A stretch of 64,000 bases of DNA from a virus (IMGVR_UViG_3300042387_000230:3248-67247); one strand, 5' to 3'; shown: positions 33,665 to 58,052, numbered from the stretch's first letter. Made by a program: numbers and translations. Notes: generated from the letters alone by a model not told the origin.

Positions 33665-36600
33665 TTAGTACGTTAACTTGTATGAGATTTGGTCTGCGTT
33701 TAGTCTCTGAAGCAGGTCAGTGATTTCCGCAGAACTCTTAGTTTTGCTTAGTTTAGTTATATCAATAACCATAATTTTATCCCTTTCATCCTGAGACTCG
33801 GCTAGGCTTGGGTAGTCTATAGTTTTGCGGTCCTCGTCCATTTCCACTGATGACATAAACGCATATCCCTTTTTAGTCAGCTTATCGCTATGCAGGATCT
33901 TTTTGTCCGTTAGCTGGTTGGCAAAAGCTAGAAGTCCGGTAGCTAAATATCTACGCTGGTACTCTTCTTTAGTCTCTATATTGGCAATATACACCTGATT
34001 GTCTAGCAAGGGCCCATCCTGTATGTCTCCCCATTCGGTACTCATACTCGCTACGGCTTCGTCGGTGTTCCCAGCTAAATCATATGCCTTTACTTCTATG
34101 TAAGTCTGAATCTTTCCAGGCTCACCGTAGTAAAGTTCTTGTAGAGAAACAACACCTTCAAACCGGTACTGTCTACCATATCTGTCTTTATATGAAGCGG
34201 TCGTAGTGGTTTTAAAGTCACGGTAGTTAGGATTGTCGTATTCTTCAGTGATCGAGCCTTCCAGGTCTATTTTTAGACTCTCAGTGGCTTTATCCATTAT
34301 ATTATCTTCGCGCTTTTCAGGACGAGCAAAGTATGAACCGTAGTGCTCACGTCTAGTGGATTTTAGTTCTTTAACTCTATTAGAGTTCGATCCAAACTGC
34401 TTTTCCGCCTGCGCAATCATGTCTGCGTAAATTTGCATCATCTCTTCCTGGTAATCAAGAAGAGGTATGCCATATGGTCCAGAAGTAAAGTCGTATGCTA
34501 GTTCTTTGTCTAGGTCTAGGTTCGGGTCAGCCGGGTCGAAAGGCTCCCCACCAAACTTCATTAGAGATGGTCTAGAGTCGGTTGGCTTTTCTGGCTTAGA
34601 AAGCAGGTTACCAAACCGTTGAGCATTTCTATCTACTATAACGTCGTCAACAGTAGCCGGATATTCTAGATACAATCCCTCTGGACTAGTTACACGGCTT
34701 ATCGCTGTATATAGCTGTCCTGGAGCAAATGCTCCATCTTCTCCAAGGTCTACCTTCAAGTTTTTAATAGTCTTACCTTGAAGCTTGTGAATAGTAGCTG
34801 CCCAAGCTAGCATCAATGGAATTTGAGTAAACGTAGCCTCAGTTATGGGGCTAAGCTTGTTTCTCACCTGGTTACTAATGGCGTCAACGCGAGAAGCAAC
34901 GTTGTATCCCTTTTTCTCCCATTTTTCTGCACCTACATCATAAATATTGTCGCCTACCTTAACTCGTACAAAATTTTCTCCTAGGGCTACAACGGTCCCT
35001 ATGGTTCCATTTACCCATCTGCGAGTAGGTGGTACTCCTTGGCCAGACTCATTGTCCGAAGCATCCTTAGCATTTTTTTCGCTATCGTTTCTGGTAAACA
35101 TTACTCTAGCGCCCACCTTCAAATCTAACTGTACAGGGGACGGAAGGTTTTTACCAAAGGCCTTGGCTCCGGCTCCGTTAAACTCCCCAGAGTAGGTTCT
35201 AGCCTCGGCATTGCCTAGCTTTCTCATTTCTTCCTGATTAATTTCTTGCGCTCGCTTAGTTCTAGCAGTCGCGTAGATTAGGTCATCTACGGACTCTGGA
35301 ACGGTGCGCGATCCAGTAGCGTTCAAAAATTCAATATCATCCATAGAGAATCTTCCAACACGGATGTTGTTTAGGACTTTTTTAAATTCAGGGTCTGATT
35401 GACGGAACACTTGGGTAAGTTCATAGACTTCCAAAGGCTTGTCCATCCAGGCCCTGGCATCAAAGAAAAATTCGCTTCTATAGTTGTTTCTATTGTAAGA
35501 AATTGCCTTTTGATCTTCTTTGTCCACTACAGGAGGAAGCTGGTATACATCGCCAAAGCCAATAAACTGAACTCCACCGAATGGTACGAACGCTTTGCCT
35601 CTGACATACCTAAGAACTCTATCCATAGCGTCTAGTAGGTCTGCAGACACCATCGACATTTCATCAACTAGAAGAGTGTCCATAGCTTTCAAGACACTTT
35701 CAACTTTGTCTCTATACTTTCCAGGCTTTGGCAGTAGCTTTTCTACGTCACTTAATCCATAGACTACTCCTGGAGTTAAGCCAAATAAGGAGTGAATTGT
35801 GACTGCGCCAACGTTTTCTGCCGCGGCTCCGGTAGGAGCTGCAGCGGCCACGTTTTTCTCAGAATTGTCTCGAATAAAATTGAACAAACGAGATTTACCC
35901 GTTCCAGCCTTACCCGTAATAAACATAGAATTATTGCTAGTTTCTACGTGATTAAACAAAGCTTGCTGCTCCGCTGACAGCTCTTGAATATCTTTCTCGG
36001 TCTCTTCTCTTTCCATGTCAGTAGGTACTTGTACAGGTGTACCATCCAAATTATTTTTAGGTACGTACCCTTCTAATTTAGATTTGTCAAAGTTAGCAGG
36101 AATTTCAATGCCAGCTACTGGCTCGTCGTTAGCCATTCTTTTCTTTAGTAGGGCAGTAAGAAGTCTATTCTTTAGAACTCCAAGCAACTCGGCGTCTAGC
36201 CCCGGAAGCATGTCCCAGTAGTTCCTTGCATCCTGGTCAGAAATTACCCCCGGCTCTTGTATAATATCCTGCACAGTTCTAATATCATTTACCGTTGGGG
36301 GATTGACAGTCACCCTAGTTTCTACTGTAGGAGATGTATTTTCTTCTCCATCAGGGAACCTCATAAACTGAGGCCCCGAAGCGGGTACCTTAGTTCCGTT
36401 TAGGTAGTCTACAAATTGGTTTAATGTCATGTTGCCGATATTCTCAGGAACTGGAGCTACCTGACCTGGCTGAGTGTCTTCTATAGACTGGTTAGCTGCC
36501 CTTTTCTTACCAGGAGCAATTTTTTTAGCTTTTTCACCACTAATTTTTAAGATGCGAAGTGCGTCAAACTTAGCTAAGTACTCTACCAGCTCTCGGGTTC

Positions 36601-58052: not shown

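Follow-up and report, generated by a model that had tools for sequence, protein, structure and literature searches.

The DNA analysed here, called the window throughout, is a 64-kb stretch (IMGVR_UViG_3300042387_000230:3248-67247) of a 67-kb viral contig from IMG/VR with a CheckV completeness of 41%. It comes from an uncultured lake phage of actinobacteria, and all genes treated here lie on the minus strand. Between the genes for the portal protein and the head maturation protease, the window encodes two giant polyvalent proteins, giant A and giant B. On the basis of sequence comparison, they are proposed to be capsid-targeted polyvalent polyproteins which would be cut at lineage-specific sites, probably by their own zincins. 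Taken as a whole chain, this proposal is judged about equally liable to hold or to fail, and its individual parts differ in strength.

Position of the two giants in the head module

In the order of transcription, a small helix-turn-helix (HTH)/terminase_5-like gene is followed by the portal gene, a 733-amino acid (aa) gene, giant A, a hairpin with three small open reading frames (ORFs) and giant B. Downstream of giant B come a 1551-aa protease/scaffold fusion, the major capsid protein and the tail genes. A sequence-only reading of the window had placed two giants with 7859 aa in total between portal and maturation protease, and the coordinates and this total (3282 + 4577 aa) proved exact. It had mentioned neither the 733-aa gene nor the hairpin and small ORFs between the giants.

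48204-58052 (-), giant A (P0002), polyvalent protein of 3282 aa; ORF with Pfam and PHROG domains, 7 close orthologues
33665-47398 (-), giant B (P0001), polyvalent protein of 4577 aa; ORF with Pfam and PHROG domains, 6 close orthologues
60267-61988 (-), portal protein; phrog_776 1e-110, 73% identity to the portal of Actinomycetia phage DSL-LC01
28956-33611 (-), 1551-aa protease/scaffold fusion (p1551); phrog_18402 head maturation protease 1e-54, Pfam Peptidase_S78 6e-4
48173-48192 (no strand), G+C-rich hairpin directly 3' of the giant A stop codon; from the sequence

The Peptidase_S78 match of the fusion falls slightly short of the Pfam cut-off. The hairpin has 8 pairs, 6 of them G-C, with A and T runs on its flanks, and a promoter-like site follows it at 48167-48139 on the minus strand.

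Domain composition of the giants

Pfam, PHROG and structure comparison identified four distinct enzymatic or binding domains in giant A and at least seven in giant B.

53253-53813 (-), giant A aa 1414-1600, DEDDh 3'-5' exonuclease; Pfam RNase_T 5.2e-16, DEDDh residues present
50802-52841 (-), giant A aa 1738-2417, UvrD-type superfamily 1A (SF1A) helicase; Pfam UvrD-helicase and UvrD_C, phrog_1967 1.9e-53
49107-49478 (-), giant A aa 2859-2982, ArdC-N single-stranded DNA-binding domain; Pfam ArdcN PF08401 4.2e-18, phrog_7245 anti-restriction protein 8.6e-58
48615-48950 (-), giant A aa 3035-3146, MPTase-PolyVal zincin with HELTH at 3068; Pfam PF18818 8.7e-29
41321-41899 (-), giant B aa 1834-2026, DEDDh exonuclease; Pfam RNase_T 2.3e-8, DEDDh residues present, 28% identity to the giant A exonuclease (E 2e-22)
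40007-40282 (-), giant B aa 2373-2464, zincin Z1 with HEYGH at 2380; paralogue of Z2 (hhalign probability 100, E 2.7e-39)
39008-39376 (-), giant B aa 2675-2797, zincin Z2 with HEYGH at 2716; AlphaFold 2 (AF2) model, VIA, Atlas
38030-38506 (-), giant B aa 2965-3123, ADP-ribosyltransferase (ART) with R3019, STS 3054-3056 and ExE 3106/3108; Pfam ADPrib_exo_Tox 1.3e-7
37547-37741 (-), giant B aa 3220-3284, ParB-like domain with DGNHR at 3260; phrog_1033 7.5e-6
34613-35992 (-), giant B aa 3803-4262, PIF1/Dda-type SF1B helicase; Pfam PIF1 4.4e-25, phrog_325 5e-74, PDB 8bns 1e-90
33668-34552 (-), giant B aa 4283-4577, GNAT-like C-terminal unit; BLAST 3.5e-20 to repeats of P0065, Atlas

At the C-terminus of giant A, ArdC-N is followed by the zincin MPTase, which is the domain order of ArdC anti-restriction proteins. 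Both helicases are profile matches with Walker A and B motifs, and a profile of six giant B orthologues searched against PDB sequences returned only PIF1/RecD-type helicases. The ADP-ribosyltransferase scores 31.6 bits with PF03496 against a cut-off of 23.4, and its R3019, STS and SEREV motifs were located; E3106 varies among orthologues. The cargo named by the sequence-only reading was thus confirmed by profiles for RNase_T in both giants, for UvrD and ArdC in giant A and for PIF1, ART and ParB in giant B, the ParB-like domain through PHROG and the others through Pfam. Its GNAT assignment stood in part. The C-terminal unit of giant B itself has no match in Pfam, and the glycine of motif A is a tyrosine in the window and tyrosine or histidine in the clade, a point against this part of the proposal. 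The homologous repeats of P0065, a 6565-aa relative, match Acetyltransf_1 at 5e-8, above the Pfam GNAT cut-off, and an Atlas lead to viral GNAT clusters scored 0.91. The unit is therefore called GNAT-like, by way of this third protein and the Atlas lead. When ten unassigned segments of the giants were searched against Pfam at E up to 5, no credible family was obtained.

Z1 and Z2 of giant B keep the H, E and H residues and a downstream E.FAE invariant in six orthologues. The AF2 model of Z2 has a predicted local distance difference test (pLDDT) of 60 overall, with 80-90 in the core. By VIA it aligned with the catalytic domain of lethal factor (Z 10.6, root-mean-square deviation 3.9, 168-170 aa, with only 13-16% identity to M34) and, over nearly whole chains, with the Pro-Pro endopeptidases (PPEP, M34; Z 8.3-9.8). 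Foldseek alone reached only E 0.04, and Atlas gave a lead to viral ATLF clusters with a score of 0.93. By the fold of this model, at pLDDT 60, Z1 and Z2 resemble M34 (lethal-factor/PPEP) zincins. Neither matched the Pfam ATLF profile PF07737 at E up to 5, and no toxin-like delivery domains are present. Membership of the MPTase-PolyVal family was rejected, as hhalign matched the HExxH helix only (probability 19-22).

A repeat of about 67 aa is present in five copies in giant B and one in giant A. Five copies were the seeds of the repeat hidden Markov model (HMM), and 889-948 is an independent match at 9e-11. "Helical" is the label given to this repeat by the sequence-only reading. A reading as ParD-like antitoxin, with a best E of 0.022 among PDB sequences, was not used.

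45764-45973 (-), giant B repeat copy 1; BLAST cross-matches, repeat HMM
44555-44734, 43598-43798, 42209-42406 and 36104-36304 (-), other giant B repeat copies; BLAST cross-matches, repeat HMM
55290-55511 (-), giant A repeat copy; BLAST cross-matches, repeat HMM

The parallel plan proposed earlier for the two giants holds for the leader core, the repeat and the exonuclease, which are homologous between them; the helicases (SF1A versus SF1B), the zincins and the domain order differ. Likewise, a zincin is found in both giants as claimed, but the families are different, with MPTase-PolyVal in giant A and two paralogous M34-like domains in giant B.

A conserved slot with exchangeable cargo

The window portal shows 60-66% identity to the portals of 186-195-kb Microbacterium phages. 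In the same slot, a "hypothetical protein" is encoded by DSL-LC01 (3289 aa), Pumpernickel (gp82, 2235 aa) and A3Wally (gp85, 1913 aa), none of which has a credible domain in Pfam. Beyond its leader, Pumpernickel gp82 (L002 21966-28673) shows just a weak C-terminal PI3/PI4-kinase-like match at 7.2e-5, under the cut-off. In Gordonia phage GMA2 no giant was found 3' of the portal. A related portal is encoded by 595 stretches in IMG/VR, from which 80 loci were kept; 35 of these have at least 6 kb downstream and are informative. An open frame of at least 1100 aa lies downstream of the portal in 34 of the 35.

The complete arrangement with two giants is found in two relatives, G001 (3094 + 5861 aa) and G002 (3527 + 4714 aa), which also share the three small ORFs and the 733-aa gene. 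Their giants are 25-42% identical to those of the window, while portal and protease are 72-78% identical. DnaG/Toprim primases occur in giant B of G001 and giant A of G002, and Pfam found none in the window giants. Giant A of G001 is without ArdC, and both relatives lack the ADP-ribosyltransferase and the GNAT-like unit. Among 53 giants with the leader of giant A, ArdcN is present in 19 and a DnaG primase in 13, while 8 have no Pfam domain. PIF1/ParB-type cargo was found upstream in only G001 and G002 among 80 protease-anchored loci. A comparison of synteny had been suggested to see if cargo varies around a fixed scaffold, and the cargo does differ among relatives behind a fixed N-terminal leader.

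The primase modules in the giants of these phage head modules comprise a DnaG Zn-ribbon, DNAG_N and Toprim (G001 and G002: L175-L178; proteins P0012-P0038). In G002 they directly follow ArdC-N and MPTase, in a TraC1-like order. A near-identical phage recurs in many lake metagenomes; the lineage is one of widespread freshwater and soil actinophages, and given this recurrence the system is ecologically common.

A leader module common to giants and protease fusions

Both giants begin with a leader which contains a basic stretch and a small beta domain, here called the leader core.

56379-58052 (-), giant A leader, aa 1-558, with the first boundary motif as its end; about 50% identity to the N-termini of giants of relatives, AF2 model
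57246-57518 (-), leader core in giant A, aa 179-269, 'RRDDEGQFAEMGGG' and small beta domain; source of the leader-core HMM
47060-47299 (-), leader core in giant B, aa 34-113, 'LRDRFGRFAEMG' and small beta domain; leader-core HMM E 5.3e-11
32451-32516 (-), leader-like 'ERSQNATRQTRNALGRFAKQG' motif in the 1551-aa fusion, aa 366-387; leader-core HMM, weak, E 0.027

The AF2 model of the giant A leader (pLDDT 76) is helical at 1-170, disordered and basic at 171-195 and continues with beta domains, and its residues 538-557 have a pLDDT below 50. The leader-core HMM covers giant A aa 178-268 and was built from 22 leaders, with the consensus RAxxQRRDRxGRFAEMGGG followed by the small beta domain. It matches the N-termini of both window giants (4e-39 for giant A) and of both giants of G001 and G002, as well as the DSL-LC01 giant, a DSL gene beside the portal and Pumpernickel gp82. 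The protease fusions are also matched in their N-terminal part, with 7.5e-7 in DSL-LC01, 5.8e-6 in Pumpernickel gp84, 0.0023 in G001 and the weak value above in the window. A giant-B-type leader profile searched against 1.84 billion cluster representatives found the leader in 517, of which 310 were at 1e-10 or better. Among the top 150, 146 leader-bearing representatives were read; 86 of them reach 1800 aa or more and 35 reach 3000 aa or more, with the leader nearly always at the N-terminus. The leader model gave only local matches of about 70-105 columns in BFVD (E 0.01-0.06), two of them named prohead protease. A KOW/Tudor-like barrel fold (VIA wide Z 5-5.8, best Z overall 6.3) was too weak to name.

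The leader shared with the fusion was read as a head-targeting device because a protease/scaffold protein must enter the procapsid, and from the sequences we infer that the RDxxGRFAEMG stretch and the small beta module have this role. It is likely, as a prediction, that the giants are packaged. Several observations weigh on the other side. In Foldseek against PDB the leader fold found nothing at E up to 0.001, and MuF or LPD domains were absent from the giants (E up to 0.01), from the leader segments (up to 5), from p733 and from p1551. The giants may also be regulated separately and need not be co-regulated, because the hairpin and the promoter-like site follow giant A.

The giants might alternatively stay in the cytoplasm as replication, repair or anti-defence polyproteins and merely lie inside the head module. 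Their cargo is mostly DNA enzymes, with exonucleases and helicases here and primases in relatives, and could serve replication; a MuF domain is missing and the hairpin separates giant A. Such a role is nevertheless unlikely. In 34 of the 35 informative loci the slot keeps its place between portal and protease, the leader module is common to protease/scaffold fusions, ArdC-N with MPTase (and Toprim in relatives) is the architecture of proteins cotransferred with DNA, and a polyvalent protein was detected in phi24B virions.

Recurring motifs at the unit boundaries

A short motif, [LFA]-M-x-[FY], recurs in both giants, with 7 sites in giant B against 1.37 expected from shuffles and 5 sites in giant A against 0.78, which makes 12 sites where about 2.2 were expected.

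46586-46597 (-), boundary motif LMAF, giant B aa 268-271; motif count, orthologue conservation
42083-42094, 40961-40972, 38612-38623, 37364-37375, 36356-36367 and 34553-34564 (-), further giant B motif sites; motif count
56379-56390 (-), boundary motif FMRF, giant A aa 555-558; motif count, orthologue conservation
53946-53957, 52962-52973, 50064-50075 and 49605-49616 (-), further giant A motif sites; motif count

The sites separate functional units. They are situated after the leaders, around the exonucleases, around the zincin pair, before the ADP-ribosyltransferase and around the helicase modules. The first motif is the exact end of the leader in both giants, and the low-confidence residues 538-557 of the leader model run up to it in giant A. 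Elsewhere in the window, six-frame ORFs from 100 aa upwards contain only two chance-like matches.

Conservation among orthologues is high. In giant A all five sites are kept in all seven orthologues, while the flanks and the x position vary. In giant B the methionine and the aromatic residue are invariant at five sites among six orthologues. The site near 3342 is kept in four of the six; the other two have their nearest match elsewhere, of unproven equivalence. The codons differ between sites, so the motif was taken to be selected at the protein level, and for the same reason a DNA-level repeat was rejected as its origin. Internal translation starts at the invariant methionine were rejected as well, there being no purine-rich stretch upstream. 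Clamp-binding (QLxLF) and PIP-box readings were dropped for a misfit in spacing.

In the giants of relatives, [LF]MxF was not found and a simple three-letter word count was also unproductive; their private motifs surfaced only after equivalent boundaries were aligned. G002 giants have [ILV]-D-[KR]-M-A at 12 sites in an unbiased search (p 1e-14), and a relaxed pattern occurs 14 times against 0.7 expected. The giants of G001 and its kin have V-D-[KR]-K-[VLI] at 4-5 sites. Neither motif occurs in 14264 aa of the other ORFs of these phages. At a boundary where the window has 'AQLMSFKDSNPEPKMTRFDPPAF', G001 has 'PIVDRKIDINSPKPNMKRFTPPAF'. Similarly, P0065 has GPSPK(EE) at 12-14 sites, exactly where the window has SLMKF before the GNAT-like unit. 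Further private motifs are GFAQ (GFAQ.AG) at 10-16 sites in P0039, a protein without any Pfam domain, P.QNK (read as PxQNRE) at 9 sites in P0090 and NMA[VI]P (NMA.P) at 4 sites in P0051. In a survey of 86 leader-bearing giants by a method which is blind to three-position motifs such as that of the window itself, 12 were beyond p 1e-6 compared with none of 86 shuffled.

The motifs were read as protease sites that co-evolve with the protease because their positions are fixed, the short motifs are rewritten and they occur in the giants only. On these grounds the balance is tipped slightly towards their being cleavage sites, as predicted, and cutting at them would give pieces of 153-1501 aa. As to the cutting enzyme, the embedded, fast-evolving M34-like zincins are predicted to fit better than the prohead protease. 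The Z domains are only 21-28% identical between phages with differing motifs.

Other results weigh against the proposed processing. Site 2143 of giant B is not kept as methionine in the orthologues, which have another site near 2452. In 9 of 14 other giants tested, namely DSL-LC01, Pumpernickel gp82, A3Wally gp85, P0012, P0023, P0028, P0038, P0041 and P0047, a crude four-letter motif search brought up no strong motif. Z-type domains are present in only 25 of 218 giants, and P0039, P0065, P0090 and P0051 carry motifs without a Z domain. Degenerate copies also occur, with LKQYG in place of HEYGH in Z1 of G002 (L177:7606-8565, -) and HEYLGH, with one residue inserted, in Z2 of the G001 type (L175:5284-6186, -). 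Giants of the G001 type contain a third Z-like copy near the C-terminus.

The prohead protease of the 1551-aa fusion might instead cut the packaged giants at these motifs. The spacing of M-x-[FY] resembles the A-x-E described for SPN3US gp245 (PMC10052503), the giants adjoin the protease gene and some motif-bearing giants have no Z domain. The protease part of the fusion is, however, 72-73% identical between the window and G001/G002 despite quite different motifs, and the window motif occurs neither in the capsid protein and the portal nor in p733 or the protease fusion itself. The prohead protease is a poor candidate on account of this conservation and of the lack of the motif in capsid and scaffold, and its role as the cutting enzyme is considered improbable. 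An equally small chance is given to packaged giants with uncut motifs. The motifs would then serve for docking, be it to a chaperone, to the inside of the capsid, to the small ORFs between the giants or to a factor of the host, or would be linker elements for unfolding during ejection. Conserved and dispersed motifs in linkers that are likely disordered would suit docking equally well, and N4 virion RNA polymerase (vRNAP), ArdC and TraC1 travel uncut as described in PMC5512222. The location of the motifs precisely at unit boundaries and at the leader end, and their wholesale replacement at the same places between sister phages, are typical of the co-evolution of protease and site and stand against docking.

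Integrity of the two reading frames

Giant A has seven close orthologues of 3089-3258 aa in other assemblies, with a leader identity of 76-84%, and an additional identical database entry with 10 member sequences. Giant B has six orthologues of 4324-5255 aa in other assemblies with 56-65% identity. A 10-kb stretch recurs near-identically in many metagenome runs from lake water. Of the 24 runs listed, 9 contain half of its words or more, and 4 are marked as possible sources. Contigs from four runs of four studies covered 30 of 30 bins of 38053-58052, with 91 of 92 pieces at least 99% alike, and no indels, joints or loose ends were seen across this interval in the contigs of four independent runs. 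One independent contig of 5.5 kb runs from the last part of giant A across the small ORFs into the beginning of giant B. Contigs of the independent runs break only at two low-complexity tracts within giant B, 43007-43059 and 44843-44893. These tracts are coding, with Glu runs and Thr-Pro repeats, and look like long flexible spacers.

It is virtually certain that the giants are real, conserved multi-enzyme polyvalent genes. The sequence-only reading had considered that the long ORFs could be assembly chimeras, and chimerism or read-through of broken genes, for which the breaks at the two tracts could speak, is hardly credible, since there are independent full-length orthologues, every bin is covered at 99% or more without indels or joints, and domains and motifs are kept over the entire length of the giants.

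Proposed mechanism and its significance

The giants would be made late, together with the head proteins, and the leader with its basic RDxxGRFAEMG stretch and small beta domain would bring them into the procapsid. Cleavage at the boundary motifs would then release about six pieces from giant A and about eight from giant B, for which Z1/Z2 would be the likeliest enzyme and not the prohead protease. When the phage infects, the pieces would exit together with the DNA and form a kit for establishment and anti-defence. In this kit ArdC-N/MPTase may act against restriction, the two DEDDh exonucleases, the UvrD and PIF1 helicases and the ParB-like domain may act on DNA, and the ADP-ribosyltransferase and the GNAT-like unit may act on host proteins. 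The idea of a capsid-loaded, injected toolkit had been put forward in the sequence-only reading, which did not notice the conserved boundary motifs that give the proteins the look of polyproteins. Such a toolkit fits the position in the head module, the leader shared with the protease fusion, the variable cargo, the domain set known from polyvalent proteins of phages and plasmids (PMC5512222) and the detection of a polyvalent protein in phi24B virions, while packaging, injection and anti-defence action are still inferred.

A wider proposal is more tentative and rather doubtful at present. According to it, the giants of this lineage would be true polyproteins of double-stranded DNA phages, each with an embedded protease and its cleavage site as a private pair that evolves fast, in which the motif is rewritten and the boundaries stay fixed. 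A common N-terminal capsid-targeting module would load interchangeable cargo, including a conjugation-like kit for DNA establishment (ArdC, primase, helicases and exonucleases) with which phages have not been credited so far.

Polyvalent proteins are regarded as the first move that many phages and plasmids make. For the loading, capsid fit and activation of such huge chains, the system offers testable handles in the leader module (517 clusters, mostly giants), the candidate cut sites and the candidate protease. If the proposal is true, foreign proteins could be packed into actinophage capsids by means of the leader, the pairs of site and protease would form a natural set of orthogonal specific proteases, and phages would use the same establishment kit (ArdC and primase) as conjugative plasmids.

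Neighbouring genes

58056-60257 (-), 733-aa gene (p733) in the interval between portal and giant A; ferritin/Dps-like N-terminus, Cys-rich modules, DUF5824
47398-48195 (-), three small ORFs (about 43, 90 and 92 aa) separating the giants; same place in G001 and G002

The N-terminus of the 733-aa protein is ferritin/Dps-like (Pfam 1.6e-10). The protein further contains two Cys-rich 'CGNCV.F...C' modules and DUF5824, and is 62-66% identical in G001 and G002. In DSL-LC01, parts of it are separate genes, one of which carries the annotation high-potential iron-sulfur protein. The role of the 733-aa protein may be to bind DNA or metal inside the head. The small ORFs between the giants encode acidic proteins without an assigned family, of which those of 90 and 92 aa are paralogues (E 5e-10). 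For the small proteins, a role as chaperones or inhibitors of the giants is conceivable.

The 1551-aa fusion has a long N-terminal part with the leader-like GRFA motif at aa 366-387, an S78-like protease at about 820-1250 and, at the C-terminal end, a coiled part in which another such motif, 'RDIKGRF', stands at aa 1391-1400; its counterpart in DSL-LC01 is split over three genes. The major capsid protein (26792-28822, -) has an N-terminal extension of about 250 aa, which starts with a coiled coil and continues with an acidic tract containing repeated 'PMEEE/PMDEE', and the PHROG capsid match starts at residue 159. Two more very large ORFs lie in the tail region on the minus strand, 10548-15953 (1801 aa) and 17503-21390 (1295 aa), the latter of which is probably the tape measure.

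Comparison with known systems

The P1 Dar system and the N4 virion RNA polymerase are delivered to defeat restriction or to start infection. The giants resemble them as large proteins which would be packed in the head and delivered with the DNA, as described for P1 DdrB and N4 in PMC5512222; no RNA polymerase or methyltransferase domain was found in the window giants. With M34 zincins, giant B shares the fold of the Z2 model and HExxH with a downstream glutamate, but its Z domains have no Pfam ATLF match, an identity of 13-16% and a model of pLDDT 60. M34 zincins such as the lethal-factor catalytic domain and the PPEPs are sequence-specific endopeptidases acting on extended peptides.

In T4, the gp21 prohead protease processes internal head proteins at a P3-x-P1 motif, and T4 and phiKZ are similar to SPN3US in this respect. 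The likeness to processing by SPN3US gp245 at A-x-E, as described in PMC10052503, would lie in the removal, at a short motif, of an N-terminal region for targeting or of propeptide type, and in many proteins packed with DNA and ejected. In SPN3US, according to that account, capsid, portal and protease proteins are cut at this motif too, whereas the window motif is found in the giants only. A further difference from prohead-protease systems is that the motif here differs between phages with 72-73% identical proteases.

The gp47 protein of phi24B is a 2811-aa polyvalent protein that was detected in virions by proteomics and proposed to be an ejection protein (bioRxiv 10.64898/2026.04.10.717836). 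Going by its description there, it is likewise a giant polyvalent protein with a metallopeptidase domain. It belongs to an E. coli podovirus, and has LPD and MuF-C domains which were undetected in the window giants. With ArdC, encoded by plasmid pSa, and RP4's TraC1 primase, as presented in PMC5512222, giant A shares ArdC-N and a zincin MPTase at its C-terminus, and in G002 and 13 of the 53 leader-A giants a DnaG/Toprim primase follows or accompanies these two domains as in TraC1. These plasmid proteins travel by conjugation as whole chains in that description, whereas in the window the module makes up the C-terminal end of a phage protein of 3282 aa and is without a primase.

Polyvalent proteins were defined in 2017 by Iyer, Burroughs, Anand, de Souza and Aravind, who predicted their packaging in phages with portal and terminase systems (PMC5512222). 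In the text of that paper, release of domains by embedded peptidases is proposed by analogy with the polyproteins of RNA viruses, and the DnaG/Toprim primases of polyvalent proteins are said to be "never" phage-encoded. The window giants agree with this class, as portrayed there, in combining unrelated effector domains in one chain (ArdC-N, MPTase, ART, ParB-like, helicases and, only indirectly, GNAT) and in their portal/terminase-type gene neighbourhood. They differ from it in being two tandem giants of 7859 aa, in having another leader module with no MuF/LPD found, in the conserved lineage-specific boundary motifs of their lineage and in the DnaG/Toprim primases in the phage head modules of relatives. 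In the literature searched, neither these giants nor boundary motifs that recur in polyvalent proteins were found described, and the word "linker" occurs 0 times in the main text of PMC5512222. The class of phage polyvalent proteins itself is already known; as far as literature searches reach, the tandem pair, the leader module, the lineage-specific boundary motifs and the Toprim primases in giants of phage head modules appear to be new.

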